Source: Planctomycetota bacterium
GTDB lineage: Bacteria > Planctomycetota > Brocadiia > Brocadiales > Bathyanammoxibiaceae
Direction of reading: 5' to 3'
Assembly (NCBI GenBank): GCA_016209685.1
Contig: JACQVQ010000005.1
Span: forward strand, 24,655-88,654
DNA: 64,000 nucleotides
This document shows positions 5,493 to 63,626 of the stretch, piece by piece (the stretch's first letter is position 1; every line of letters starts with the position of its first letter). A program made the position numbers and the translations under genes. Below the pieces are notes generated by a model. That model was not told where the DNA came from, did no database searches, and was given only the letters and a program-made list of their open reading frames with translations.

Positions 5493-6056
5493 GGCCAGTG
5501 TAGTATCACCGTAACTCCTTTTATCAAAGAGACAGAGATTGCCCAGACTCTCTGGCAGTTCAACCTTGTGGGTCCTATACCTTACCACTGCAATGGCATC
5601 CTTCTCCAGGAGGGACTCTCCTCCACTGCCCAATGCAGATACCAGGTCAAAGATCCCCTGTCCTTCCTTTGGTCTCTCCCACAGCACGTAGGGGGGGTCA
5701 ATAAAGACTAGTCCAAACCGCATCCCCCTTTTTTGGAGTTCTGGGAGGCATTTAAAGGCATCTCTTTTGAGTATAGTGCCTCTGGTAGCAAATCCAGTTG
5801 ACTCAAGATTTTTTCTTAGGGCCTGTACGGCCCTGGCGTCTCTTTCAATAAACACACACTGTCTGGCCCCCCGGCTCAGGGCCTCAATGCCCAGTGCCCC
5901 GGTGCCCGCAAAGAGGTCTAGTACAATACTCCCTTCCACCACGTTAGCCAGGATGTTAAAGACAGCCTCTCTTATCTTATCCTGGGCGGGCCTTACTTCA
6001 AGACCTCTGGGGCAGAAGAGTTGTCTACCTCTTGCCAGACCTCCGCTGATACGCAT
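5478..6056 (-). CDS. rsmD: 16S rRNA (guanine966-N2)-methyltransferase
   Basis: 192 aa. LDLFAGTGALGIEALSRGA SAM motif and FIDPPY catalytic motif. Confidence 0.9.
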   Translation of the reverse strand: MRISGGLARGRQLFCPRGLEVRPAQDKIREAVFNILANVVEGSIVLDLFAGTGALGIEALSRGARQCVFIERDARAVQALRKNLESTGFATRGTILKRDAFKCLPELQKRGMRFGLVFIDPPYVLWERPKEGQGIFDLVSALGSGGESLLEKDAIAVVRYRTHKVELPESLGNLCLFDKRSYGDTTLAFFRL

Positions 6057-6148
6057 GTCCTTAAATTATAACAATGTAATCGCACAGGACAAGTAGGTGT
6101 CCCCTAGCTTACTTGACCCCCACTGGGGTCCATGATAAGATTACTTCC

Positions 6149-6234
6149 GTAGGGACAGGTCCCGCCCAGAACATGGCGTCCTCCCAACAAAAGGCGGACT
6201 TTCAGGATTTTCAACTTGTCCGCCTCAGGCGGAC
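6149..6234. repeat. Composite repeat: GTAGGG...GGCGTCCTCC..AGGCGGACTTTC..GATTTTCAAC + gtccgcctcaggcggac
   Basis: Shares the strings catggcgtcctcc and aggcggactttc(ag) with 41866-41938 (reverse orientation). Shares ggcgtcctcc..aggcggactttc and gattttcaac with 42580-42673. Confidence 0.8.
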
Positions 6235-39720: not shown

Positions 39721-41262
39721 ATGAGAAGACTTTCACTACTTACCGCCTACTGCCTACTGCATATTGTCTACTGCATACTACCTACTACCCTCCATGCAGA
39801 GGGCGTAGAGTTCCACTCCCAGATGGGCTTCTTGAGGCTGTCCCTTACGGACTGCATAGAAATGGCCTTTAAGAACAACCTGGACGTGGAGGTTGCCAGG
39901 CTCAACCCGAGAATAGGAGATAAAGACATATCAATCGCCAGGGCCAGGTTTGACCCGGTATTCAAGAGTACGGGGGAGATACGCAAGGACGAAACCCCTC
40001 TGAATTCTATCTTCATCACTGGCTCTGCCCCGGGAGAGTACACTGAACACAGAAAGCTAATGGACGCCACCTTAACCTCCCTCATCCCTACTGGGGCCAC
40101 CATCAGCATCCAGTACAATAACCTCCGGAATAGGCGAAAGCCTGTGAGTAAGAGCACCGTCCCTATTAACCCCTCCTGGAACACCTTCTTTGAGGCCAAA
40201 CTCACCCAGCCCCTCCTGAAAGGCGGCGGGATATTCTACAACATGAGCCCCATGTACATTGCCAGGAACGATAAGAGGAAATCCATCTACGCCTTCAGGC
40301 GCACCCTCGGCGACGTGGCCAACTCCACCCAGAAGGCCTACTGGAACCTGGTAAAGGCCATTGAAGACCTTAAGGCGGCCCATAAATCACTCCAGAGGGC
40401 GGAGGAATTCCTCCGCCGAAACAAGCTCCAGGTAGAGGCAGGACTACTGGCCCCCATTGAGATAGTGGCCGCAGAGGAAGAAGTATCTGCCCGACGAGAG
40501 GACATTATAGTGGCAGAAAACGCGGTAAGGAATAGAGAGGACAACCTCAAACAACTCATGAACCTCCTCAGCCTGGAGGCCGACCCTGTACTGATGGATA
40601 TTACCATCGCCCCTCTGGACACACCCCAATTCCTCCCCAAGAAGATAAGCCTGGAAAACTCCTTGCAGGTGGCCCAGGAACGCAGGCCAGAGTTGTTTGA
40701 GAACCGCCTTGCACTGGAAAATGCAGGGATTACTGAAAAACAGAAAAAGAACGAACTCCTGCCCAAGCTTGACCTGGAAGGTGGGGTAAACTACAGCGGC
40801 CTTGGCAGTAATTGGCGTGATGCACAGGATTCTACCTGGGCATATCAATTCCAGGGCGAGTACGCCAAACTCACCCTTGAGGTGCCCATCGGCCTCAGGG
40901 CAGAGAGGGCCAATTATAACAAGGCCAAGCTCTCAAGACGTCAGGCAGAATTGGCCCTCAGAAAGACAGAACAAGATATATTAGTCCAGGTAAGGGCCGC
41001 CGTCAGACAGGTTCATACTAACGTAGAACTGGTAGAGGCCACAAAGAAGACCAGAGTACTGGCCGAAAAGAGACTGGAGGCAGAGGAGCGGAAATTCGCC
41101 GTGGGCAGGTCCACCAGCCTGGAGGTACTCAGGGCCCAGGAAGAACTCACCAAGGCAGAGGTCCTTGAAATCAAGGCTATTACAGATTATCAAAGCTCCC
41201 TGGGAGAGCTTGAGGCTTCCAAGGGTACTATACTGGACTTTTTTGGTGTTGTAATTGACTGA
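39721..41262 (+). CDS. tolC: TolC-family outer membrane efflux protein
   Basis: 513 aa. Signal peptide ending LHA|EG. Two OEP repeats with long coiled helices. Confidence 0.88.
39739..39790 (+). repeat. CCTACTG-family heptad array lying inside the tolC signal-peptide coding region
   Basis: cttaccg cctactg cctactg catattg tctactg catacta cctacta ccc encodes [18 protein letters not shown]. Confidence 0.85.
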
Positions 41263-41376
41263 GGGTTGTGATATATTTCTCGCACAATGGGAATATGTCT
41301 AGAGTCGGTGCAGGGGTTCTTGGTTCAGGGTGGCGTTAAGACACTAACAAGTCCCGTTCTATAGAAAGGAGCCAGC

Positions 41377-41472
41377 ATGACTAAAGCTATGAGGGTTATG
41401 ATACCAATTCTCGCCGCCTTCGGAGCAACAGCAATCGGCATAAACGTCTACTTATACATCTTCGCCAGATAA
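41377..41472 (+). CDS. Mini single-TM peptide, paralog 1 (31 aa)
   Basis: Found by hand. AAAGGAG SD 6 nt upstream. MTKAMRVMIPILAAFGATAIGINVYLYIFAR. Confidence 0.55.
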   Translation: MTKAMRVMIPILAAFGATAIGINVYLYIFAR

Positions 41473-41482
41473 CACTCATAAA

Positions 41483-41605
41483 CTAGGGGGTAGGGAGTAG
41501 GGGGTGGGGAATTAGGTTTTCTACTGACTACTGTCTACTTGCTAAAAGGGAGTAAGGAGTAGATATTGCTTATTGTTTACTCCCTACTGCTTACTGCCTA
41601 CTGTT
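41483..41605. repeat. Composite heptad-word arrays (TAGGGAG and CTACTGC families) between convergent peptide genes
   Basis: ctagggggtagggagtagggggtgggg...ctactgactactgtctactt...gggagtaaggagtag-atattgcttattg-tttactccctactgcttactgcctactg. Confidence 0.85.
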
Positions 41606-41768
41606 ATCTGGACACGTGTCGTGCCTGACCGCTAACCATGTCTAAGCCCGTGGTGTTGGGTTGGACCTGCTTCTTAGAAAAATTCAGATAAATGTTGGCC
41701 CCTATAGCACCCCAGCCCACTACTACCACCGCAATAAGCAGGGCCTTCAATCCCTTATTTGTCTCCAT
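41604..41768 (-). CDS. Mini single-TM protein, paralog 2 (54 aa from the internal ATG, 62 aa from the ORF-track start)
   Basis: METNKGLKALLIAVVVVGWGAIGANIYLNFSKKQ... GGAG motifs lie upstream of ATG 41768. Shares the G-x-x-A-I-G-x-N-(V/I)-Y-L core with paralog 1. Confidence 0.5.
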   Translation of the reverse strand: METNKGLKALLIAVVVVGWGAIGANIYLNFSKKQVQPNTTGLDMVSGQARHVSR

Positions 41769-41790
41769 CTCTCCAACTCCATTCTCCACC

Positions 41791-41863
41791 ATGGACTGAA
41801 AAGACCATAGACAATAGACTATGGACTAAAAAAACCCACAGTCTAAAGTCTATAGTCCATAAC
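41791..41863. repeat. Heptad-word inverted repeat (TAGACTA/TGGACTA family)
   Basis: atggactgaaaagaccatagacaatagactatggact-aaaaaaaccc-acagtctaaagtctatagtccat. Confidence 0.85.
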
Positions 41864-41865
41864 TC

Positions 41866-42018
41866 CCTAGTTGGGCGACCCACCGGCTGAAAGTCCGCCT
41901 CTGGAGGACGCCATGTCTTGGGCGAACTGTGCCCCTACTCCACTTTTGGAGTCCCCGCCCGAGGCGGATTTTCAACATTGACTGTGTCAATGGACCAGCC
42001 ACATCCGCCTGAGGCGGA
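41866..42018. repeat. Cluster of composite repeats (reverse copy of the GTAGGGGCAC...GGCGTCCTCC..AGGCGGACTTTC element, plus ccgcccgaggcgg-attttcaac and tccgcctgaggcgga)
   Basis: String matches to 6149-6234 and 42580-42673. Confidence 0.8.
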
Positions 42019-42063
42019 CTGGACTCCATATCAAAATGGCAGTGACGGTCGTCCTCCACAGGC

Positions 42064-42153
42064 TTAGATAAGAAATAACACAATGTTTACTGCAATAACT
42101 GCCACACCTAGGGTTGCCGCAGCAATTATCAAGGCTCTCAGTCTCTTTGACAT
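42064..42153 (-). CDS. Mini single-TM peptide, paralog 3 (29 aa)
   Basis: Found by hand. GGAGG SD 10 nt upstream. MSKRLRALIIAAATLGVAVIAVNIVLFLI. Confidence 0.5.
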   Translation of the reverse strand: MSKRLRALIIAAATLGVAVIAVNIVLFLI

Positions 42154-42186
42154 CTTCTTTCAACCTCCATTTTGGTTAATGAGCCA

Positions 42187-42214
42187 GTAGGGGCGTATTG
42201 CAATACGCCCCTAC
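42187..42214. repeat. GTAGGGGCGTATTG|CAATACGCCCCTAC perfect palindrome
   Basis: 28 bp. Confidence 0.95.
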
Positions 42215-42286
42215 AACCGCTTAACTGTCCTTTATGGGGCCCCGGTCCGCCTGAGGTATCCACCGCAGGTGGATCACTAATACAAC

Positions 42287-42314
42287 GTAGGGGCACGTTG
42301 CAACGTGCCTCTAC
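42287..42314. repeat. GTAGGGGCACGTTG|CAACGTGCCTCTAC palindrome (1 mismatch)
   Basis: Copy of 17897-17924. Confidence 0.9.
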
Positions 42315-42579
42315 AGGCTTTTATCTTGCTACGCCATATCCATCAAAAATAGTGCCGTTTGCTACTTATACGTTAATTGTTTTATAATACAACATGTGTG
42401 TCTATGATAGATTGTTCCAAGTTTATGCAATAAATTAACTTAAGACAGTTTAATAATTAGCTTAAACCCGCCTCCAGCAATCCAGGACATTGTTAGGGGC
42501 TAAAAGGCGGGGCGAGGGGGGCTACATTTTACGTTGCAAGCCCGTAATTTGTAGCCATTAAACCACCCCAGATGCGGCT

Positions 42580-42673
42580 GTAGGGGCGATTCCCGTCTGA
42601 GGCGTCCTCCCGAGGCGGACTTTCCCGCCTGAGGCGGATTTTCAACAGGATTTTCAACATGAATTGCCCCTAC
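42580..42673. repeat. Composite element: GTAGGGGCGA...TTGCCCCTAC framing GGCGTCCTCCCGAGGCGGACTTTC, ccgcctgaggcgg and 2x GATTTTCAAC
   Basis: Direct reading. Lies 9 nt downstream of the pseudopilin stop. Confidence 0.85.
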
Positions 42674-42681
42674 CCCACAGC

Positions 42682-43311
42682 CTACTTTATACGGTAGGCT
42701 ATATCGTCCGCACCTATGACCATATTCGGGCCTGTCTGGTCAAAGTTTGTGTCCACCACCCTGTTAGGACCTGAGGAAAGGACATAGACGGGCTTATTCC
42801 CCTGCTCGTTTGCTGGCCAGAGGAACTTCACATTGACCAGATAGGCATGTCCCCAGGGGTCTGCACGGAATTGTTCAATGTAGGGGCCCCTCCAGGCATA
42901 CTCTAGGGTGGGGTCACCGACATTAGTAGGGTAGGCAGGGGTATTGATGCCTAGCTGGTTCAACAGGGTATCGGCAGTGTCTCCAGAGGGTGGACCACCC
43001 TGGCCGGGTAGGTTCCCTGGCCCGATCAGGAGGGCGGCCTTAGCGTCGCCAGACTGCCGGGCAGTCCCTACCTGCCAGACAGGCCAGTCCCCCAGGTCAT
43101 TATAAAAGGCGCCGAGGGCACCCCCGATAAGCTTTACGTCCTGGGTGGCCCTCCTGAGTTTGGAACTCTGGACGTACCTGGCCATCGCAGGAGCAATGAT
43201 GGACGCCAGGAGGCCGATGATAGCGAGGACTATGACTACTTCAATCAGGGTGAAACCACTGCCAGAGTTCTTACACTCAAGATAGTGTGGGACCTCACTC
43301 CTGAACCCCAT
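42682..43311 (-). CDS. Type II secretion GspG-like pseudopilin / type IV pilin-like protein, paralog A
   Basis: 209 aa. Prepilin motif G|FTLIEVVIVLAIIG after a 19-aa leader. C-terminal WRGPYIEQFRADPWGHAY (GspG-like DPWG motif). Confidence 0.85.
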   Translation of the reverse strand: MGFRSEVPHYLECKNSGSGFTLIEVVIVLAIIGLLASIIAPAMARYVQSSKLRRATQDVKLIGGALGAFYNDLGDWPVWQVGTARQSGDAKAALLIGPGNLPGQGGPPSGDTADTLLNQLGINTPAYPTNVGDPTLEYAWRGPYIEQFRADPWGHAYLVNVKFLWPANEQGNKPVYVLSSGPNRVVDTNFDQTGPNMVIGADDIAYRIK

Positions 43312-43331
43312 GGGTAATCTCCCCTTTCAGG

Positions 43332-43423
43332 GTAGGGGCGACCCGGCCCTGTACCAATCAGGTACAGGGTTTTGTTCCGCACCTTGTCCTGTACCCTTGT
43401 GGTGCAGGGCGGGTCGCCCCTAC
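43332..43423. repeat. Composite palindrome GTAGGGGCGACCCG...CGGGTCGCCCCTAC with inner CCCTGTACC-aatca-GGTACAGGG hairpin, in the pseudopilin A leader
   Basis: Outer 14-bp arms, with the inner hairpin at 43347-43369. Confidence 0.9.
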
Positions 43424-43459
43424 AGTGTAACAAACTATTACGTGACTATTTGGCGGGCA

Positions 43460-43843
43460 CTAATCATCGTGGTGCTCGTGACCCTTTCCTTTTCCTTTCT
43501 CGTGGCCCTTACCCTTCTTCTTGCCCTTCCCTTTTCCATCATCGTCGTCACCATCATCAACATCCCCACCGCCCGAAGGTGCGGGGGACGGCGTTACTTC
43601 TATTGGCGCAGGAGAAGGTGCGGGGGACGGGTTTACTGAAGGTGCAGGAGGAGGGCTGACAGCAGGCGGTGCCGAGGAATCAGGAAGGGACGGCCAACCT
43701 GCTCCCTGCTGTGCCAAAGAAAGATTTGAGAGGGCAAACAATAACCCTATTGACAGGACCACAACTCCAGGTAGCACCAGGCTACCTAATACCCTAGATA
43801 CCTTATTCATATCCATTTTCTCCACTGATGAAAAGGTTTGCAT
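43460..43843 (-). CDS. Secreted or anchored intrinsically disordered protein (Pro-rich linker, poly-Asp block, Gly-Lys/His tail)
   Basis: 127 aa. Hydrophobic signal/anchor LGSLVLPGVVVLSIGLLFALSNLSLA, then SSAPPAVSPPPAPSVNPSPAPSPAP, then GGGDVDDGDDDDGKGKGKKKGKGHEKGKGKGHEHHDD. The start could be the M10/M12 ATGs. Confidence 0.55.
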   Translation of the reverse strand: MQTFSSVEKMDMNKVSRVLGSLVLPGVVVLSIGLLFALSNLSLAQQGAGWPSLPDSSAPPAVSPPPAPSVNPSPAPSPAPIEVTPSPAPSGGGDVDDGDDDDGKGKGKKKGKGHEKGKGKGHEHHDD

Positions 43844-43850
43844 GGGCTAG

Positions 43851-43878
43851 CTAGGGGCACTGCGTGCCATGCCCCTAC
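43851..43878. repeat. Degenerate CTAGGGGCAC-tgcg-TGCCATGCCCCTAC palindrome
   Basis: Imperfect member of the GTAGGGGC family. Confidence 0.75.
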
Positions 43879-43883
43879 TCATG

Positions 43884-43918
43884 CGAAAATCCTGGGGCAG
43901 GTAGTTGCCTGCCCCAGG
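43884..43918 (-). terminator. Rho-independent terminator candidate downstream of pseudopilin B
   Basis: Minus strand reads CCTGGGGCAGG-caacta-CCTGCCCCAGG followed by ATTTTCG. 11-bp GC-rich stem with a short U-tract. Confidence 0.55.
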
Positions 43919-43955
43919 ATACGGGCCTAACTATAGGTGCATCTGATACACCCCA

Positions 43956-43985
43956 GTGAGGGCGAACACATAGGTTCGCCCCTAC
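43956..43985. repeat. GTGAGGGCGAAC-acatag-GTTCGCCCCTAC palindrome
   Basis: Member of the GTAGGGGC family (1-2 mismatches), 8 nt downstream of the pseudopilin B stop. Confidence 0.8.
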
Positions 43986-43992
43986 AGGGAGA

Positions 43993-44694
43993 CTACTTTA
44001 TGCGGAAGACTATGTCGTCTCCGGCCACTACCATGTTCGGACCAGCCTGGGCGTAGGTCGTTGCCAACACCTTGTCGGGGCCGGCAGAGATGACATAGCA
44101 CACACCATTCCCCTGCTCCCTGCCTGGCCATAGCTCTATTACATTGACCAGGTAGTTATTTCCCCATGGGTCTGCACGGAACTGTTCAATGTAGGGACCC
44201 CTCCATGCGTACTTCAGAGTAGGGTCATTTATAGTGGTAGGATAGTCAGTGGCGGCGGCATTAAAGGCGCCATCGATGTTGGGGTCGTTCACCCAGAGAT
44301 GCTGGGCCCCACTGCACTGGTCCGTCCCGGTAAGCAGGGCAGCGGTCCACCCAGCGCCTGCGGTTGCATCCTTATTGCTAGGATCGAGAGCACCGGTAGC
44401 TGTATCAACAGGGCCGAACTTAAGGATACTGTAGGCAGTGCCAGTAGTACCAGCGCCTACCATGCTATCCGCACTACCATCCTTCCAGATGGGCCACTCA
44501 CCCAGGTCGTTGTAGAAGTTGCCCATGGCGGTACCAATCATCTTCACGTCTTCCGTCGCCCTCCGCAGTTTAGCACTCTGTACGTACTTAACCATGGTAG
44601 GGGCCAGGATGCCCGCCAACATCCCTATGATGGCCAACACGATGATTATCTCTATCAGCGTGAAGCCACCGCTCTTACTCAGCTTCTTAATCAT
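43993..44694 (-). CDS. GspG-like pseudopilin / pilin-like protein, paralog B
   Basis: 233 aa. MIKKLSKSG G|FTLIEIIIVLAIIG. Same C-terminal block as paralog A (WRGPYIEQFRADPWGNNY ... GPNMVVAGDDIVFRIK). The central ~90 aa diverge. Confidence 0.85.
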   Translation of the reverse strand: MIKKLSKSGGFTLIEIIIVLAIIGMLAGILAPTMVKYVQSAKLRRATEDVKMIGTAMGNFYNDLGEWPIWKDGSADSMVGAGTTGTAYSILKFGPVDTATGALDPSNKDATAGAGWTAALLTGTDQCSGAQHLWVNDPNIDGAFNAAATDYPTTINDPTLKYAWRGPYIEQFRADPWGNNYLVNVIELWPGREQGNGVCYVISAGPDKVLATTYAQAGPNMVVAGDDIVFRIK

Positions 44695-44769
44695 GACATT
44701 CTCCTTTTTCTAAACGTTTCTAAACGGAAACCAACCACCTTGAGACAAAATACTGTACCAGGTACACTG

Positions 44770-44846
44770 AAGGCAGTAGGCAGAAGAATAAAATTTTGCT
44801 TACTCCCTACTGCCTACTACCTACTGCATATCAATCCCTACTCCCT
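44770..44846. repeat. Heptad-word inverted repeat (CAGTAGG family) with an extended CTACTNC arm
   Basis: aaggcagtaggcagaag-aataaaatttt-gcttactccctactgcctactacctactgcata..ccctactccc. Confidence 0.85.
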
Positions 44847-45151
44847 GGGCGACCCACCGGGTCGCCCCTACTAAGGGCTATCTTGACATGGGAGACGGCC
44901 TCGTCTGATCCGCATATCCACACATTTTCTTCTTCCCGCAGATTATTGTAGAAGGCACCTATGACAGTACCAGCCATTGAGTTGTCTCTCATCTCCCACC
45001 CTGACAATCCATTTTTTCCACCTGTCATATACTTATTAATGGTAAGGGTAATGGTGCTTGCGGCCAACCCAACGATTGTTACAAGGACGACTATCTCCCA
45101 CCGCCCAAAAACCACTGTTGTTTTTTTGGCATTCTCTCTTGAGAGACCCAT
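44831..45151 (-). pseudogene. Truncated, degenerate third pseudopilin copy
   Basis: 106 aa. VVFGRWEIVVLVTIVGLAAS...MAGTVIGAFYNNL aligns to GFTLIEIIIVLAIIGMLAG...MIGTAMGNFYNDL of paralog B. The Gly(-1)/Phe(+1) cleavage motif is lost and the DPWG domain is missing. The reading frame ends in the 44847-44871 palindrome (..GDPVGRPGSRD*). Confidence 0.45.
44847..44871. repeat. GGGCGACCC-acc-GGGTCGCCCCTAC palindrome (left end degenerate)
   Basis: 9-bp arms. Right end is CCCCTAC. Confidence 0.8.
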
Positions 45152-45195
45152 TCAGGCCATCCTTTCCAAGATATACACCGTATTGGGCGGACACT

Positions 45196-45253
45196 GTAGG
45201 GGCAGATCGTGCCAGAGGCAGACCCGCCTCGGGCGGGCCTATGTGTCTGCCCC
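45196..45253. repeat. Composite GTAGGGGCAGA...TCTGCCCC element enclosing cccgcctcgggcggg
   Basis: Direct reading. Confidence 0.8.
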
Positions 45254-45426
45254 AAACCCTGAGAAGGCTTATCTCAATAATCGTGCCATTTCTACCCAAA
45301 AAATTCTGTACTGGTCTAACATTTGCAAAATAATGACTTACAAAAGAATAACCCCTTACACGGCCGTCCCCCTCACAGATAGAAAGGCTACAAATCTTGT
45401 AGCCTTCCAACGGGATTTGCTGTCAT

Positions 45427-45491
45427 AGGTCTGGAGTAGGGGGTAGGGAGTAGGAAGTAGGAAGTAGGGGCACGGCACGCCGTGCCCCTAC
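45427..45491. repeat. Single TAGGGAG/TAGGAAG heptad arm fused to the palindrome GTAGGGGCACGGCACGCCGTGCCCCTAC
   Basis: aggtctggagtagggggtagggagtaggaagtaggaa + 45464-45491 (1 central mismatch vs 14774-14801). Confidence 0.9.
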
Positions 45492-45564
45492 TTCAAAAGG
45501 GGTTAAGTTTTGTCCGAAGTTCAGAACACTAATATTTGAAGTAGCTTGAGTATTACGGCAGAAT

Positions 45565-45580
45565 TGGCACGAGATTAGCT
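45565..45580 (+). promoter_or_regulatory. Candidate sigma54 (-24/-12) promoter upstream of pilT
   Basis: TGGCACG-agat-TAGCT vs the consensus TGGCACG-N4-TTGCW. The -24 heptamer is perfect, the spacing is exact, the -12 GC is conserved, and there is one mismatch. About 125 nt upstream of ATG 45705. Confidence 0.4.
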
Positions 45581-45704
45581 AATGCGTTAAGCTTTTAAGA
45601 CTCTAGAAAGGTGCGGTCTTCCGCCCCGGCCTCGCTACCTTGAAGGCAAATAAAATATTTTGGTACGGGACCGGCGTATCCAGGAGCAAAAAAGAGGTGA
45701 GAAA

Positions 45705-46781
45705 ATGTCCATAGATATAAGCGAATTGCTACTGTTTGCCAGGAAAGAAGGGGCCTCAGACCTCCACCTGAGCTCGGGGGAGCCCCCCATAATCAGGGTG
45801 GACGGAGACATAAGAAAGGTGGATGCGCCGTCGATGGTGAAAGAGGATGTGCATACCCTTCTGTACGACATCTTGAACGACCGCCAGCGCAAGATTTTTG
45901 AAGAAAAGCACGAGCTAGACCTTTCCTTTAACTTTAAAGGGGTGGGTCGCTTCAGGGTGAACGTCTTCGTACAGTCCAGAGGGGAGGCCATAGTCTTCAG
46001 GGTCATTCCAGACAAGATACCGGCCCTGGAGTCTCTAGGACTGCCGCCCATAGTAAAGGAACTTACCAACCGCCTCAGGGGGCTAATACTGGTCACTGGC
46101 CCCACGGGCAGTGGGAAGTCTACCACCCTGGCTTCCATGCTAGAACACCTCAACCAACGGGAGAGGCTTCACATCATAACCATTGAGGACCCTATAGAAT
46201 TCACGTATGAACCCAAGAACTGTCTGATTAACCAGCGGGAATTGGGTCCCCACACCTACAGTTTCGCTGCGGCCCTGAGGGCGGCCATGAGGGAGGACCC
46301 GGACGTCATACTGGTAGGAGAGATGCGCGACCTGGAGACTATAAGCCTGGCCATGACGGCGGTGGAGACGGGTCACCTGGTCTTTGCCACCCTCCACACC
46401 TCAGGGGCCGCCAGGTCTGTGAACCGTATCGTGGACGTCTTCCCGCCTTCTCAACAGGCCCAGATAAGGACTGTCTTTTCCGAGGCAGTTACGGCCGTAA
46501 TCTCCCAGCTCCTCCTCAAGCGCAAGGGGGCCAGGGGAAGGGTGTCGGCGGTGGAGGTAATGGTGGGTATACCTGCTATAAGAAACCTCATCAGGGAGGG
46601 CAAAGGCAGTCAGATTACTGCAACCATGCAGACCAGCAGGCAATTGGGGATGCAGACCATGGACTTCTCCCTGGTGGAACTCTACAAGAAGGACCTGGTG
46701 GAGAAAGAGACCATACTCCCCTACCTGAGCAGTCCGGAGGTAATAAGTAGCTTGATGGAACCTGTGGAGGAATTAGACTGA
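45705..46781 (+). CDS. pilT: Type IV pilus retraction ATPase PilT
   Basis: Start moved to MSIDISELLLFARKEGASDLHL (SD AGAGGTGAG). GPTGSGKST Walker A and the AIRNLIREGK motif. Confidence 0.92.
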   Translation: MSIDISELLLFARKEGASDLHLSSGEPPIIRVDGDIRKVDAPSMVKEDVHTLLYDILNDRQRKIFEEKHELDLSFNFKGVGRFRVNVFVQSRGEAIVFRVIPDKIPALESLGLPPIVKELTNRLRGLILVTGPTGSGKSTTLASMLEHLNQRERLHIITIEDPIEFTYEPKNCLINQRELGPHTYSFAAALRAAMREDPDVILVGEMRDLETISLAMTAVETGHLVFATLHTSGAARSVNRIVDVFPPSQQAQIRTVFSEAVTAVISQLLLKRKGARGRVSAVEVMVGIPAIRNLIREGKGSQITATMQTSRQLGMQTMDFSLVELYKKDLVEKETILPYLSSPEVISSLMEPVEELD

Positions 46782-46786
46782 AATTT

Positions 46787-48022
46787 ATGGAGTCCATTGA
46801 CTATGTCAATGGACAGCAGGCGGGCTGGAATAGTACGAAAGGACATACATTGAAGCTTGAACCCCTTTTGGAAGATATGGTGCGGAGGGACGCCTCAGAC
46901 CTTTACCTGATAGCCGGGGCCCCCGTAACCTACAGGGTAATGGGCAAGACGGAACCCGTGGGAGAACCCCTCCAGCCGGAGGACACCAAAGCCCTGGCAC
47001 TATCCCTCCTCAGCGAGAAACAGCAGGCCGAATTCCTCCAGAAGCACGAGATGAACCTCTCCTATAGTATCTCTCAGGTGGGGCGATTCAGGGTAAATTG
47101 CTTCTTCCAGAGGGGGTCCATGGGCGTGGTAATAAGGCAGATAAAATTCCTTATAAAGAGTATAGATGAGCTGGGTCTCCCCAGCCTCCTGAAAGACATT
47201 GTCATGACCAAAAGGGGACTGGTCATGGTAGTAGGGGCATCAGGCTCAGGAAAATCTACCACCCTGGCCGCCATGATTGACCATAGGAACAGTAACGCCT
47301 CAGGACACATCATCACCATTGAGGACCCCATAGAGTTTATTTACGCCCATAAACGGTCCATAGTAACCCAGAGGGAGTTAAGCCTTGATACGGAGTCTTA
47401 CGGTGAGGCCCTTAAGAACGCCTTCAGGCAGTCACCGGACGTGATACTGGTAGGAGAAATAAGGGATAAGGAGACCATGGAATCAGCCCTGGCCTTTGCA
47501 GACACGGGACACCTCTGCCTATCCACCCTCCATGGCACCAATGCCAACCAGGCCATAGAACGGATAATAACCTTCTTCCCTGCTAACCAACAAGACCAGA
47601 TACATCTCCTCCTGTCCCTCAACCTGAAGGCAGTTATCTCCCAGAGGTTGGTCCCCTGCATTGACGGTAAGCGGATAGCAGCCATGGAGATACTCCTGGG
47701 CACCGCAAGGGTGAGAGACCTTATACTGAAGAAAGAGATTGACCTGCTAAAGGACACCATGGCCCGTAGTACACAGGAGGGTATGCAGACCTTTGACCAG
47801 GCCATTTTGGAACTCTTCAAGAAAGGCCTTATAACTATTGAAACGGCGGTGGCCTACGCTGATAGCCCCAACGACCTCAGGCTGAAGATAAAGATGGAGG
47901 GTCTGCTGAAAGAACCTGAGACGAAAGCGCCCGCCTTGAAGCTCAGGAAATCTACGGAGCCATCTGCCGAATCAATAGAAAAGGCAAAGAAAGGGGAAGA
48001 GAAGAAGGCAAATGGCGGATAG
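46787..48022 (+). CDS. pilU: PilT/PilU-family ATPase with a Lys-rich C-terminal extension
   Basis: 411 aa. ASDLYLIAGAP, GASGSGKST, TLHGTNANQA. Extra ~50-aa tail ending KAKKGEEKKANGG. Confidence 0.8.
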   Translation: MESIDYVNGQQAGWNSTKGHTLKLEPLLEDMVRRDASDLYLIAGAPVTYRVMGKTEPVGEPLQPEDTKALALSLLSEKQQAEFLQKHEMNLSYSISQVGRFRVNCFFQRGSMGVVIRQIKFLIKSIDELGLPSLLKDIVMTKRGLVMVVGASGSGKSTTLAAMIDHRNSNASGHIITIEDPIEFIYAHKRSIVTQRELSLDTESYGEALKNAFRQSPDVILVGEIRDKETMESALAFADTGHLCLSTLHGTNANQAIERIITFFPANQQDQIHLLLSLNLKAVISQRLVPCIDGKRIAAMEILLGTARVRDLILKKEIDLLKDTMARSTQEGMQTFDQAILELFKKGLITIETAVAYADSPNDLRLKIKMEGLLKEPETKAPALKLRKSTEPSAESIEKAKKGEEKKANGG

Positions 48023-59793: not shown

Positions 59794-62409
59794 TTAATCG
59801 TCCGTGTCCCTCTTCACTCCAGGGGCACCGGGTGTAGGGGCAGGCTTTACGCCTGCCCTTTTAGTTGTCCTACCCCTCTCCACTTCGGGGGCACAGGGTA
59901 AGTATCCATCAGGCTCTATAACTCCCCCTTCTATAGTAAAGCTAATGGCCCCTAATTCAGAGGTGGGGAGTAGCCTCGCCATGGCAAATCTATCTAAGGT
60001 ATGACCTGACCCCGAATCCACCTGAGGTGAAGGGGGGGAAGTACGGGAATAGTAGTAATCCAGATTCTTTCTTTCCGTACTCACCGCCACATACTCAGGG
60101 GAAACCCTCTCCAGAAACTTATCCAGATTTGGGCTATAACTCCCGTGATGAGGGGCCACCACTATCTCGGCCCCTATCTCAGCCCCAGAGGCAATAAGCC
60201 TGCCTATGGCCTGGCCCTCTATATCACCGCACAGCAGTACGGAGCGCCCTTGATAATCTACACGCAACACACAGGAGGCATCATTCGCAGAGAACCTGTT
60301 GCTATCCTGTGGGGGATTCAATACCTTCACCCCTGCCCCACCGAGCCCGTTTAATCTCACACCCTCCTGGATTACCTCCACCGTCATCCCCCTGGACTTA
60401 ATAAAATCAACCAGGGGACTACCCTCCTCTGAAGAGAGGAGGTGATCATTTACCAGTACCCTCCCCATACGAAACCTCTCCGTAAGAAAAGGCAGGGCAT
60501 TAAAGTGGTCTGCATCCTCATGAGACACTACCACGAGGTCAATCTCCTTGACCCCTTCTTGCCAGAGGAAGGGTGCTATCACGTGACGGCCCGCATCAAA
60601 ATAACCCCTGGTCCCGGCATCGTAAAGCATTGTCCTCCCATCAGGAAACCTTACAAAGACACAACTTCCATGTCCCACGTCCAATACGACAACCTTCATA
60701 GAATCCCTGCCCCAGAGGGGTATTTCACCGTAGACATAGACGTTTCCCGCCAGGAGGAGTGCACCTGCTATGTAAGACAACCTCACACCGATACCCTTCA
60801 CCAGTAAGGCCAGGGCTCCCGAAATATAAAAAACCATAAGCCATGGCCAGGAGGGAGAGGGGCCATAAACATAGGTAAAGGGCACGGATGCGACCCAGGA
60901 GATTATGCCCTTCATAAAGATATCCACCGCCTCTGCAAGATGGGCAATGGGAAAGGCCGCCGTAACTGACAGTTGCCCTAAAATAGAGAGGCAAAAGCCG
61001 CTGATGGTAAGTATCCACACAAGGGGGAAAATTAATAGGGTTAGTATGGCCCCCCATGGAGAAAAGAGGTGGAAATAATACAAGACCAGGGGGGAGATGG
61101 CCGCCCATGCACCTATAGACCCGCAAAGGGCCTTTCTGAGGTAAACCCAGACCGTCCGGAACCTCCGGCGTTCCTCAGGGACCTGAAGTCTCTCCACCAG
61201 GAGAGAAGGCCCCCAGAACAGTGATTCTATACGGGCCTCCAGATAAACCAGGCCCAGAAACCCCACCAGAGAGAGTTGAAATCCTGGATTAAACAGGTCT
61301 GCGGGATTAAAAAGGAGTGTCGCCAGCACCGCAGCAGAAATCCCGCTAGGCAGGTCCCACTCCCTCTTCACCAGCAAGGAACCATAACAAAAGACCGCCA
61401 AGAAGGTGGCCCTGAGTACCGGTGGCTCAAAACCCGTTAGGAGGGCGTACAGCATTGCCGCCGCCATTATTATAGGGGCAATATGCCTCCTGGGGATTCT
61501 TAAGAGGAAGAGAAAGAAATGGATGGTAATCACTATCATCCCCACCTGCGTACCGCTAATGGCCAGGAAGTGATAGGTGCCCGTCTTGCGAAACTCATCC
61601 AGCACCTCCCTGGGCATCTCCTCTCTCTCCCCCCATACTAACCCAGCCATGGTAGCGGCACTGCCAGGCAGGGCTGAGCGGGCTATCCCTGCCTCCAGCC
61701 TCTCCTTCAGAAAATATACGGTACGAAAGAAGGCATTTCCTTGCCCGCTGGCAAGAATTTTTACGTTCTGTCCCTCCTCCACACTGGCAATGGCCCTTAT
61801 GGGAGGCATCTTTCCCTGGAGATAGCCCCTATAATCCATCTGCCCAGGGTTCCTGGACCCTGGAGGGGCATAGACCTTCCCCAGGAACTCCACCTCCTGA
61901 CCATATCTAAACATGGTATCCAGTGGATTGTATACCCGCACCTGCACCACTCCCCTTGCCCTGTGCCATCCGGATCGTCCTTCTACCGCCTTTACCTTCA
62001 GGAGGAACTGACACTGCTTCATGTCCTCCCTTGCACCCTTCCATGGAAGGATAGATGAAGTCGCAGTCTGGGTAAAGGAGGGCTCAATTACCACCCCCTT
62101 TAGCCGCATAAGGATCCTCTCCTCACTAACCAGGCGCCCAATGTCTGCATCGCTAAAAGAATAAAAGCGGATATGGTGGTAGACCGCCCCTGACGACAAG
62201 GAAAGGAATAGACAGCAAGACATATATACTGTGCCCCTGTGGAGATGACCAGTACCGCCCTCACCCAGGAGGAATACTATGGCCCAACACCCCACTAATG
62301 CCCCAAGGACAAGACCTAGAAGAAGTGGCAGGCCGGGTACAAGTAGACCATCCAGGAATATGCCACTGGCAAAGGCAAGGACAATCAAGAGGAGTGGACG
62401 GTGTCTCAT
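59794..62409 (-). CDS. comEC: ComEC/Rec2 DNA internalisation channel with a C-terminal metallo-beta-lactamase domain
   Basis: Start moved to MRHRPLLLIVLAF; the upstream 37 codons are heptad words. Multi-TM competence domain. MBL motif VVSHEDADH. The C-terminal tail RAGVKPAPTPG is encoded by the 59834 palindrome. Confidence 0.88.
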   Translation of the reverse strand: MRHRPLLLIVLAFASGIFLDGLLVPGLPLLLGLVLGALVGCWAIVFLLGEGGTGHLHRGTVYMSCCLFLSLSSGAVYHHIRFYSFSDADIGRLVSEERILMRLKGVVIEPSFTQTATSSILPWKGAREDMKQCQFLLKVKAVEGRSGWHRARGVVQVRVYNPLDTMFRYGQEVEFLGKVYAPPGSRNPGQMDYRGYLQGKMPPIRAIASVEEGQNVKILASGQGNAFFRTVYFLKERLEAGIARSALPGSAATMAGLVWGEREEMPREVLDEFRKTGTYHFLAISGTQVGMIVITIHFFLFLLRIPRRHIAPIIMAAAMLYALLTGFEPPVLRATFLAVFCYGSLLVKREWDLPSGISAAVLATLLFNPADLFNPGFQLSLVGFLGLVYLEARIESLFWGPSLLVERLQVPEERRRFRTVWVYLRKALCGSIGAWAAISPLVLYYFHLFSPWGAILTLLIFPLVWILTISGFCLSILGQLSVTAAFPIAHLAEAVDIFMKGIISWVASVPFTYVYGPSPSWPWLMVFYISGALALLVKGIGVRLSYIAGALLLAGNVYVYGEIPLWGRDSMKVVVLDVGHGSCVFVRFPDGRTMLYDAGTRGYFDAGRHVIAPFLWQEGVKEIDLVVVSHEDADHFNALPFLTERFRMGRVLVNDHLLSSEEGSPLVDFIKSRGMTVEVIQEGVRLNGLGGAGVKVLNPPQDSNRFSANDASCVLRVDYQGRSVLLCGDIEGQAIGRLIASGAEIGAEIVVAPHHGSYSPNLDKFLERVSPEYVAVSTERKNLDYYYSRTSPPSPQVDSGSGHTLDRFAMARLLPTSELGAISFTIEGGVIEPDGYLPCAPEVERGRTTKRAGVKPAPTPGAPGVKRDTDD
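59834..59858. repeat. GTAGGGGCAGGC-tttac-GCCTGCCC element (right end degenerate) in the comEC 3' end
   Basis: 8-bp stem. Left end is GTAGGGG. Confidence 0.8.
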
Positions 62410-62436
62410 TGAACGATTATTATTAGGAGTTATATT

Positions 62437-62574
62437 CTGGGGACAGGGGCTGGGGATTGGGATTAAAGGAATTGGAAGTTGTAAATTGGAAATTTTAAAT
62501 TTAAAATTTTCAATTTCCAACTTACAATTTAATGTGTTTCCACTCCCTACTCCCTACTCCCTAGCCCCTATCCT
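62437..62574. repeat. Nested heptad-word hairpins (outer GGGGACA/GGGATTG vs CCCTACT words, inner ATTGGAA/ATTTAAA hairpin)
   Basis: ctggggacaggggctggggattgggatt [ggaattggaagttgtaaattggaaattttaaatttaaaattttcaatttccaacttacaattt] ccactccctactccctactccctagcccctatcc. Confidence 0.9.
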
Positions 62575-63626
62575 TCCTGCCCCCACACCACAACGCAATT
62601 CCTCTCCTGCTTGGCCTTGTAGAGGGCAGAATCAGTGGTCTTTATAAGGTCCTGATAGCTGTGTACCCCTTTGTCTGGGGTACTTGATATCCCGATACTT
62701 AGAGAGACTTTATAGCTGGCCGATTGATAATGGAAATGGTACTGTGCCACTTTTTCTTGCAGACGTCGGCAGGCCAGGCTGGTGGCAGTAGAATTGGTCC
62801 CTGGTAAGAGTACCATAAACTCGTCCCCACCGTAGCGGAATATTAGATCCGTCATACGAAGATGCCCCTGCATAATCAGGGCAAGCTCCTTAAGGACGTA
62901 ATCCCCAAAGGGGTGACCATAGGTATCGTTTATTGACTTGAAGTGATCAACGTCTATCATAACGCAGGAAAAGGGGTGATTGTATCGCCTGGTACGTTCA
63001 AACTCCCGGTGGATAGTATCTATGCAATGTCTGTGGTTATATAGGTTTGTAAGTCCATCTCTTATGGAGAGTTCTTCTAGCCTGCTATTTAACTCCTTGA
63101 GTTTCTGAAGGGCATCCATCAGGTTTGCCTTATGCTCTAACTCATACACCTCGGCCATATACTGGTAATCAAAATTCAACATCTTCTCCACGGCCCTCAT
63201 AATCTTGCCCAGTTTCTCTCTATCCTCACCATAATACTCCTTAAGAATATCGCGGAGGAGATGATAAAAGACGTTCAAGGCCCCCAGATACCACCTTGGG
63301 GCAAGCCCCAGTCTGAAATGCACTGCACCGGCGTTTACCCGCTTTTTTACGTAAGAAGGTCCGTAATCCCCTGAGAACAACTCCATTACATACTGAGGGA
63401 GGGCGCTCTTGAACCTTCCCACCTTTTGTTCATCCTTTAGTATCTCTTTCGTCTCTGCAAACCTCATCAGGTGAGACCAGAAACCCTCCACAAGCCTCCC
63501 CATATTCTCCTCAACAACGGGCCGTACCTCCCGCAAGAGGGCCTCGTCCTCACTGGAAATCCAGGAATAATCTTTACGGAGCTGGATGTCCTTTGGATCG
63601 GTGAGTTCAGAGTATTTATCTTGCAT
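62568..63626 (-). CDS. Globin-coupled sensor diguanylate cyclase (protoglobin-like N-domain + GGDEF)
   Basis: 352 aa. N-terminal sensor-globin pattern GAVHFRLGLAPRWYLGALNVF. C-terminal RYGGDEF with GLTNLYNHRH. Confidence 0.85.
   Translation of the reverse strand: MQDKYSELTDPKDIQLRKDYSWISSEDEALLREVRPVVEENMGRLVEGFWSHLMRFAETKEILKDEQKVGRFKSALPQYVMELFSGDYGPSYVKKRVNAGAVHFRLGLAPRWYLGALNVFYHLLRDILKEYYGEDREKLGKIMRAVEKMLNFDYQYMAEVYELEHKANLMDALQKLKELNSRLEELSIRDGLTNLYNHRHCIDTIHREFERTRRYNHPFSCVMIDVDHFKSINDTYGHPFGDYVLKELALIMQGHLRMTDLIFRYGGDEFMVLLPGTNSTATSLACRRLQEKVAQYHFHYQSASYKVSLSIGISSTPDKGVHSYQDLIKTTDSALYKAKQERNCVVVWGQEG

Follow-up and report, generated by a model that had tools for sequence, protein, structure and literature searches.

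Three paralogous genes for predicted small single-pass membrane proteins at an outer-membrane protein/pseudopilin junction in anammox Planctomycetota

Bacteria encode small membrane proteins beside the genes for larger membrane machines. Described examples are AcrZ with AcrB, KdpF with KdpABC, CydX with cytochrome bd, and the proteins of the MgtS/MgrB type. We analyzed three short genes, here called A, B, and C, in a 64,000-nucleotide stretch of contig JACQVQ010000005.1 from a Planctomycetota bacterium (this whole stretch is referred to as the window). Their predicted products have 29-54 amino acids and one transmembrane (TM) helix, and AcrZ resembles them in both size and single-TM layout. 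As with the described proteins, the genes stand beside and are co-oriented with genes for membrane machines, occur in a narrow taxon, and are usually unannotated. The trio has no sequence relationship to AcrZ, KdpF, CydX, or the MgtS/MgrB type. Its neighbors are a pseudopilin cluster and an orphan gene for an OEP/TolC-family outer-membrane protein rather than a pump or an oxidase, three paralogs stand at one locus, and longer relatives carry a predicted ectodomain made of a beta-hairpin and a helix. The trio belongs to a new family within a known kind, that of operon-linked bacterial micro-membrane proteins, and no database family covers it. Pfam, NCBIfam, PHROGs, PADLOC, and a PDB sequence profile gave nothing meaningful for the family, and Rfam gave nothing at the gathering score or at E<=1. 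AcrZ (PF10766) was not matched by A, B, or C in Pfam at E<=1, nor in NCBIfam.

Three other classes of small membrane proteins were compared with the trio. Type I toxins (Hok/Gef, Ldr, Ibs, TisB, Fst) are likewise short and hydrophobic, with a charged terminus, clustered copies, and structured flanking RNA. The trio differs from them in that it matches none of these peptide families in Pfam or NCBIfam at E<=1, has no antisense- or toxin-mRNA family nearby in Rfam at the gathering score or at E<=1, and contains no repeated DNA module. Its family also includes soluble tails, keeps its chromosomal synteny across an order, and has members that abut pseudopilin genes. PilN, PilO, the C-terminal part of GspL, and GspM, the bitopic alignment and assembly-platform proteins of type IV pili and type II secretion, are encoded in pilus or secretion clusters and combine a basic cytoplasmic N-terminus, a TM helix, and a periplasmic helix, an arrangement that two longer relatives of the trio (P0017 and P0026) fit. 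This resemblance is one of layout only. The family spans 29-110 amino acids against ~160-200 for the platform proteins, the AlphaFold2 (AF2) model of P0017 has no ferredoxin-like domain, and neither the window proteins nor the long-type members matched PilN, PilO, or GspM in Pfam at E<=1. Prepilins and Flp pilins are also small, have an N-terminal hydrophobic helix, and are encoded with pilin genes, and the G-A-T-A-I of protein A recalls the G/ATAIEY site of Flp pilins. A, B, and C lack both the G↓F-x-x-x-E and the G↓xxxxEY motif and match neither Flp in Pfam nor the N_methyl motif (PF07963 / TIGR02532), which the neighboring pseudopilins do match. We rejected a signal-peptide or Flp-prepilin identity: the hydrophobic stretch has 22-23 residues, an AxA site does not occur consistently, and the Gly lies mid-helix, so that cleavage at it would leave too short a segment. 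A microcin or bacteriocin exported via TolC was rejected as well, as the peptides lack a double-glycine leader and the neighborhood lacks an ABC/C39 exporter.

The gene order at the locus is OEP -> A <- B <- C <- pseudopilins, with A and B convergent (Table 1). An earlier note, made from the letters of the window, had singled out the three open reading frames (ORFs). Its coordinates and translations proved correct, and the Shine-Dalgarno (SD) sequences that it listed (AAAGGAG, GGAG..GGAG, and GGAGG) are all present. SD spacing is normal for each gene, and the SD position is kept in the orthologs. The purine-rich SD of B is found in the window and in the related loci L007, L008, and L009, and a weaker form is found in L003. 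The conserved start of B is the inner ATG at 41768 and not the upstream ATG at 41792, because in L009 a stop codon directly precedes the inner ATG and L007 and L008 have no upstream Met. The note had called all three genes unannotated. In the deposited metagenome-assembled genome (MAG) GCA_052361005.1 ('Candidatus Tripitaka californicus') this is true of A and C but not of B, which is a GenBank hypothetical protein and the sole member of the trio annotated there. C (in a Logan assembly) and the A-type genes are called only in some other assemblies.

The three peptides are related to one another. They align without gaps over 29 residues, with M1, K3, G16, I20, N23, and L26 invariant and a pairwise identity of 8-11/29. 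This alignment bears out the shared layout read in the earlier note, namely a basic N-terminus followed by one TM helix with a G..AI(G/A)xN(I/V)(Y/V)L core. When each peptide was searched against the 1787 six-frame stop-to-stop segments of the window, its two best non-self matches were the other two (phmmer E 0.007-0.18). Hidden Markov models (HMMs) built with one peptide left out retrieved the omitted one at E 1e-4 to 2e-3; the best of the remaining segments reached only E ~0.5 or worse. HMM scans of all six-frame segments found no fourth copy in the window. Core nucleotide identity among the genes is 41-52% (17-48% at third codon positions). Identity this low at the DNA level indicates that the paralogy is old and not a DNA repeat. 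The genes had been described as embedded in a repeat patch, and the region is indeed repeat-rich, but the repeats lie between the ORFs and not inside them. Repeat-derived DNA, which the note had named among the findings that would undo its proposal, does not account for the similarity.

We compared the three genes with their orthologs for signs of selection on the protein. In divergent pairs, in which synonymous divergence (dS) reaches 0.6-1.5, the ratio of nonsynonymous to synonymous divergence (dN/dS, by the Nei-Gojobori method, NG86) is 0.08-0.34 for A (0.08 for the window vs L007), 0.14-0.5 for B, and 0.19-0.55 for C. Values below 1 for every gene answer the call for a coding-signature check in the earlier note. 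Only the annotated frame, of the six, is stop-free in all lineages, and the fraction of amino-acid-changing codon differences is lowest in that frame. Substitutions peak at third codon positions in A (87) and B (180; both summed over pairs), and in C they are nearly as frequent at first as at third positions (112 vs 114). Random redistribution of the substitutions (permutation) produced equally few amino-acid changes with P = 0.0005 for A (window vs L007), P <= 0.005 for B, and P ~0.02 for C. The sole internal indel seen, one extra codon in the B gene of L008, is a multiple of three. These comparisons firmly support the view that A, B, and C are real genes kept by purifying selection while their spacers turn over.

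Orthologs of each type were found with a profile of the three peptides, and their contigs were then compared. A, B, and C occur in frame and in identical order in five sequence-distinct lineages (window/L001, L003-6, L007, L009, and L008), and L028 and L029 share the order OEP -> A <- B <- C <- pseudopilins. Across loci with all three genes, OEP identity to the window runs from 94% down to 74%. More distant family members are present in L020-L027 and L034, and there OEP identity to the window falls to 66%. Orthologs of A were recovered from L003, L007, L009, L008, L027, L026, L020, and L022. Those of C, with 29-30 amino acids, come from L003-6, L007, L008, L009, L020, and L029. The search in relatives that the earlier note had suggested thus found all three frames kept in every related locus recovered down to 74% OEP identity, and the compact locus L008 retains all three genes without the repeat patch. 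Copy number per locus varies from 1 to 4, with four paralogs in L020.

Searches beyond these loci point to a narrowly distributed family. An exhaustive HMMER search of 1.84 billion cluster representatives returned 14 matches at E<=0.001, of which ~10 are short proteins with the same N-terminal helix; the others are multi-stretch matches within long proteins. With a 14-sequence core HMM that includes their own sequences, A, B, and C reach 49-58 bits (E 3e-14 to 4e-17). Each of them has the features by which we propose to recognize the family: a basic N-terminus, a TM segment with an A-I-(G/A)-x-N-(V/I)-(Y) core, and a gene at an OEP/pseudopilin junction. All members found come from a single anammox order, Ca. 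Hypogeohydatales, to which 'Candidatus Tripitaka californicus' belongs in the NCBI taxonomy (Planctomycetota, class Ca. Brocadiia). A scan of JGI metagenomes with the B-type alignment gave 3 loci only, and a scan of genome contigs with the OEP gave two close relatives only. No family members were found on viral contigs or plasmids or at the distant OEP loci L011-L019, and no search returned a copy outside the OEP/pseudopilin locus. We found no paper that mentions these genes; the only one found is a preprint on aquifer anammox bacteria, from which the genus name Ca. Tripitaka comes (10.1101/2023.04.27.538623). Taken together, the sequence comparisons firmly support a new family of small single-pass membrane proteins.

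Family members fall into A, B, C, and long types. A-type proteins have Pro at position 10, and in relatives they carry Pro-rich tails of 20-30 amino acids (for example ...APEPKRGVITIEIPVPQGTPPPQESPTTK). In every lineage, including L008, L020-22, L026, and L027, A-type genes follow immediately after the OEP gene on the same strand, at a distance of 41-202 nt. In Tripitaka, A has lost the tail, which L027 and L008 keep, and its TM part is still strongly constrained. Wherever they occur, B-, C-, and long-type genes point the same way as pseudopilin genes. In L022 the gene for P0026 starts 3 nt past a pseudopilin stop codon, in L034 the P0075 gene overlaps a partial upstream ORF by 4 nt (start 346, upstream end 349, by gene calls), and in L023-25 ('Ca. 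Bathyanammoxibius') P0021 is encoded between pseudopilin genes. Long-type proteins share the tail V-T-A-(I/V)-D-(L/M)-x-T-G-E-(V/I)-K-x-L-T-P-E-E-A-x-x-I-R-(D/E), which was found in only six proteins among 5.8 billion. The part V-T-A-I-D-L-x-T-G-E-V-K is predicted to form a beta-hairpin, and these proteins also have a charged helix. The B tail, TTGLDMVSGQ, is a remnant of this tail (LDxxTGQ hairpin motif).

Predicted structures agree with a membrane-spanning N-terminal helix. AF2 models B as one long helix over residues 3-35, with a predicted local distance difference test score (pLDDT) of 85-91 over residues 11-30 and an uncertain tail. The long-type protein P0017 is modeled with a TM helix (3-29), a beta-hairpin (36-49), and a second helix (51-86) at a mean pLDDT of 79, and Foldseek against the PDB found nothing below E=3. 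N23 (A numbering) is invariant in 18/18 distinct members, among which Ile20, Ala19, Val14, Gly16, and an aromatic residue at position 25 are nearly invariant. It is well established that polar Asn residues in TM helices drive these helices to associate. Model-peptide studies by Choma and colleagues and by Zhou and colleagues in 2000 reportedly found that Asn drives the association of TM helices.

On balance, we favor the reading that A, B, and C are genuine paralogous small bitopic membrane proteins of an undescribed, order-specific family and serve as accessories of the pseudopilus/OEP apparatus. We infer the accessory function from gene linkage alone. By the positive-inside rule, the predicted topology would be N-in/C-out, most clearly for C. 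The proteins would be located in the cytoplasmic membrane and act there on the pseudopilin apparatus (of the type IV pilus or type II secretion-like kind), either as accessory subunits or as modulators, and the neighboring OEP is a possible further target. Given the gene linkage and the strictly conserved TM Asn, the simplest model would have them bind a partner helix, whether in the pseudopilus apparatus, in the OEP-linked machinery, or in the other paralogs; the contact could run through the buried Asn and its small neighboring residues. The TM-only proteins A and C would then be derived truncations that keep the interaction helix.

Several observations weigh against this reading. Conservation within the TM segment shows no clean 100-degree periodicity, which leaves a single interaction face unsupported, and the topology of B is ambiguous, with basic residues on both flanks. 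Almost all loci recovered have the pseudopilin and OEP clusters as convergent neighbors, which makes linkage to the one inseparable from linkage to the other; the exceptions are the short contigs L023-25, which hold pseudopilin genes only. Co-transcription of C with the pseudopilin gene in Tripitaka is uncertain, because a long spacer with conserved promoter-like blocks parts the two. In L032, a pseudopilin relative from another organism (41% identity) has no family member nearby, and the proximal part of the pseudopilin cluster (L031) holds none either.

The same linkage could be historical. Functionally independent membrane micro-proteins, with a general membrane or stress role or one related to ladderanes, might have settled at the 3' ends of two convergent operons. 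Such a junction is permissive for gene birth and duplication, and the family always sits at it; the genes have conserved upstream blocks of their own in Tripitaka, and the family is absent beside the more distant pseudopilin homolog. We judge this unlikely. A member abuts, overlaps, or lies between genes of the pseudopilin direction in three lineages (L022, L034, and L023-25), and no search found a copy away from this locus.

The earlier note had found the location next to TolC to fit efflux partners of the AcrZ type. Such peptides would bind an inner-membrane transporter that works with the TolC-family channel beside them and would adjust its substrate range. The fixed position of A-type genes directly behind the OEP gene suits this idea, as do the Pro-rich A-type tails of relatives, which resemble periplasm-spanning linkers. 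It accounts for the position of A only; B-, C-, and long-type genes go with pseudopilin genes instead. Besides the missing match to AcrZ, no RND, membrane fusion protein (MFP), or ABC exporter gene was found in a Pfam scan of 28 of the window ORFs or among the genes called in related loci. No MFP, RND, or ABC gene adjoins the OEP gene, and the genes immediately upstream of it are folE, dapA, and pdxJ. Finally, A lost its tail in Tripitaka with no relaxation of selection on its TM part. An AcrZ-like role for the trio is therefore quite improbable.

Type I toxin-antitoxin modules were the other suggestion of the earlier note. The peptides would depolarize the membrane, and their mRNAs would be repressed by antisense RNAs encoded in the conserved non-coding blocks next to them. 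Short, hydrophobic peptides with a basic N-terminus, several of them clustered as paralogs, are what such modules encode; conserved non-coding blocks do lie beside C and A, with promoter-like sites on both strands (including 42359-42388 on the plus strand), and a long stable hairpin follows A. We nevertheless hold this reading to be very unlikely. Toxin and antisense- or toxin-mRNA families were not matched, and, in contrast to tandem type I arrays, no repeat at the DNA level links the three loci (41-52% identity). The non-coding blocks are missing from L008, L020-22, and L034, and a 3-nt gap or a 4-nt overlap between genes leaves no room for an antisense RNA. Related members have hydrophilic tails of 30-80 amino acids with a predicted fold. 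Synteny is fixed throughout the order, and no plasmid or viral-contig copies were found.

A bolder extension of the accessory reading would have the family act as membrane adaptors, peculiar to this lineage, that physically link a pseudopilus machine made of pseudopilins and two PilT-like ATPases, without a secretin, to the orphan TolC-like channel. The B-, C-, and long-type proteins would dock to pseudopilins in the inner membrane, and the Pro-rich tails of A-type proteins would reach the OEP. This is a long shot; if true, it would amount to a previously unknown piston-type secretion route in anammox Planctomycetota. Chance or repeat-derived pseudo-ORFs have next to no probability: the spacer is rich in repetitive extragenic palindromic (REP)-like sequences, hydrophobic ORFs arise easily, and pairwise identity within the trio is only ~30%, but frames, starts, SD sites, and lengths are kept where spacers are unrelated, all other frames contain stops, the repeats are off the ORFs, and we regard this explanation as refuted by the frame conservation, the dN/dS values, and the substitution permutation.

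Small membrane proteins are systematically missed by annotation, and the deposited MAG has only one of these three genes annotated. The family adds an order-specific entry to the sparse small-protein catalog of uncultured anammox bacteria. With three to four paralogs per genome, it offers an invariant membrane-embedded Asn as a mutable motif. It also highlights a conserved and unexplained neighborhood, in which an orphan OEP gene is convergent with a cluster of pseudopilin and PilT-like genes. If the peptides are subunits of the apparatus, they would provide a handle on how these bacteria build a surface filament or a secretion route. If they are not, they would be a tidy case of micro-protein gene duplication and tail loss that touches no long-standing question.

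Table 1. Coordinates of the trio and its surroundings (positions in the window; ~ marks approximate limits)
Feature	Position	Strand	Remarks
OEP/TolC-family outer-membrane protein gene	39721-41262	+	Pfam OEP E 9e-47; A downstream, co-oriented
Promoter-like site TTGTAA-17-TATATT with TG	41249-41277	+	Overlaps OEP stop codon, upstream of A
5'-leader block GGGTGGCGTTAAGACACTAACAAGT	41328-41352	+	Upstream of A; kept in four lineages
Shine-Dalgarno of A, AAAGGAG	41365-41371	+	AAGGAG or GGGAGG at the same distance; all five lineages
Gene A (A-type)	41377-41472	+	31 aa, MTKAMRVMIPILAAFGATAIGINVYLYIFAR; TM-only, truncated form
Long imperfect hairpin between convergent A and B	41466-41610		-61.1 kcal/mol, z = -6.6 (+ strand)
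Gene B (B-type)	41604-41768	-	54 aa, METNKGLKALLIAVVVVGWGAIGANIYLNFSKKQVQPNTTGLDMVSGQARHVSR; last gene in pseudopilin direction
Shine-Dalgarno region of B, GGAG..GGAG (GGAGTTGGAG)	41771-41780	-	
Gene C (C-type)	42064-42153	-	29 aa, MSKRLRALIIAAATLGVAVIAVNIVLFLI; TM-only; between pseudopilin genes and B
Shine-Dalgarno site of C, GGAGG	42164-42168	-	Kept in all five lineages
Non-coding block upstream of C, AT-rich	~42330-42450		Between pseudopilin gene and C
Non-coding block upstream of C, GGCTACAAATTACGGGCTTGCAACGTAAAATGTAG	~42520-42560		Minus-strand reading; between pseudopilin gene and C
Pseudopilin cluster	42682-44694	-	N_methyl and T2SSG matches; C, then B downstream, co-oriented
GspG-like pseudopilin genes	42682-43311 and 43993-44694	-	Pfam/NCBIfam
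Two PilT-like ATPase genes in pseudopilin cluster	45660-46781 and 46787-48022		

The sequences around the trio change far more than the genes. The spacer between A and B has 4 nt in L008 and 115-159 nt, mutually unrelated, in the other lineages, and the REP-like insertions in the OEP-A and pseudopilin-C spacers differ between lineages. The long A-B hairpin has as its base the last 8-9 nt of each gene, including the stop codon (CCAGATAA / TTATCTGG). In L008 (5160-5180) the hairpin is compact (CCAGGTAAA/TTTACCTGG, with 4 nt between the stops). A 131-nt insert enlarges it in the window, and its interior is non-homologous among lineages. Probably A and B share this structure as a bidirectional terminator, which an inserted element would have enlarged.

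Some non-coding sequences upstream of A and C are conserved. The promoter-like site at the end of the OEP gene is kept in the window, L003, L007, and L009, and is not found in L008, in which A begins 41 nt past the OEP stop. Directly upstream of the 5'-leader block of A, the sequence is replaced by differing REP-like insertions. Both blocks upstream of C are kept in the window, L005, L007, L009, L028, and L029, flanked by variable repeat insertions, and are absent from L008, L020-22, and L034. Within the AT-rich block, a 10-of-12 sigma-70-like site (42359-42388, plus strand) faces away from C, and the minus strand has weaker sites. Rfam gave no match to these blocks. Their candidate roles are a C-B promoter or leader and an unannotated small RNA. 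Because conserved promoter-like blocks lie upstream of A and C, these two genes may have acquired promoters of their own in the Tripitaka lineage.

The repeats of the region, all between ORFs, are CCGCCTGAGGCGGA-type palindromes and GTAGGGGCG...CGCCCCTAC hairpins. The palindrome CCGCCTGAGGCGGA, with <=2 mismatches, gives 31 strand-matches at ~17 sites in the 64 kb, against 0.47 expected. Its sites include 6219, 18006, 22194, 35477, 41894-42020, 42592-42640, and 55478; five sites fall in the patch at 41.9-42.6 kb, and related copies occur elsewhere in L007 and L009 spacers. The element behaves as a dispersed REP-like repeat. Perfect 28-nt hairpins at 42187-42214 and 42287-42314 (GTAGGGGCGTATTGCAATACGCCCCTAC and the variant GTAGGGGCACGTTGCAACGTGCCTCTAC) appear to be a second mobile, hairpin-type intergenic repeat family, and in L003 the same 28-nt element sits in a different spacer, that between OEP and A.

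Three observations concern gene models in relatives. In L003/L004/L005/L006 the 5' end of B is partly duplicated (METNKILKHYAMDVSTFKRAVG-METSKRLK...), for which reason gene callers give a 76-aa product there, and a weak SD precedes the inner start. L027 has two tandem A-type genes (5600-5758 and 6001-6159) downstream of the OEP gene. The 468-aa ENA protein P0028 shares a 90% cluster with P0012, a 54-aa B ortholog, and is probably a gene-calling or read-through artifact.

The adjacency of the orphan OEP gene to the convergent cluster of GspG-like pseudopilin and PilT-like ATPase genes (39721-48022) holds across the whole order. Neither the ORFs scanned nor the gene calls around 39721-48022 included a secretin, PilC/GspF, or prepilin peptidase. 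Between the two pseudopilin genes lies an ORF for a 127-aa membrane protein (43460-43843, minus strand) that has no Pfam match. The protein combines a hydrophobic segment at the N-terminus with a stretch rich in Pro, Ser, and Ala and a tail rich in Gly, Lys, His, and Asp (…GKGKGKKKGKGHEKGKGKGHEHHDD). In relatives, a gene comparable in size and place was called (L008, 138 aa; L005, 158 aa). Elsewhere in the window and unrelated to the trio, a gene for a protoglobin-GGDEF diguanylate cyclase (62568-63626, minus strand) adjoins one for a ComEC-type competence channel (59794-62520, minus strand).

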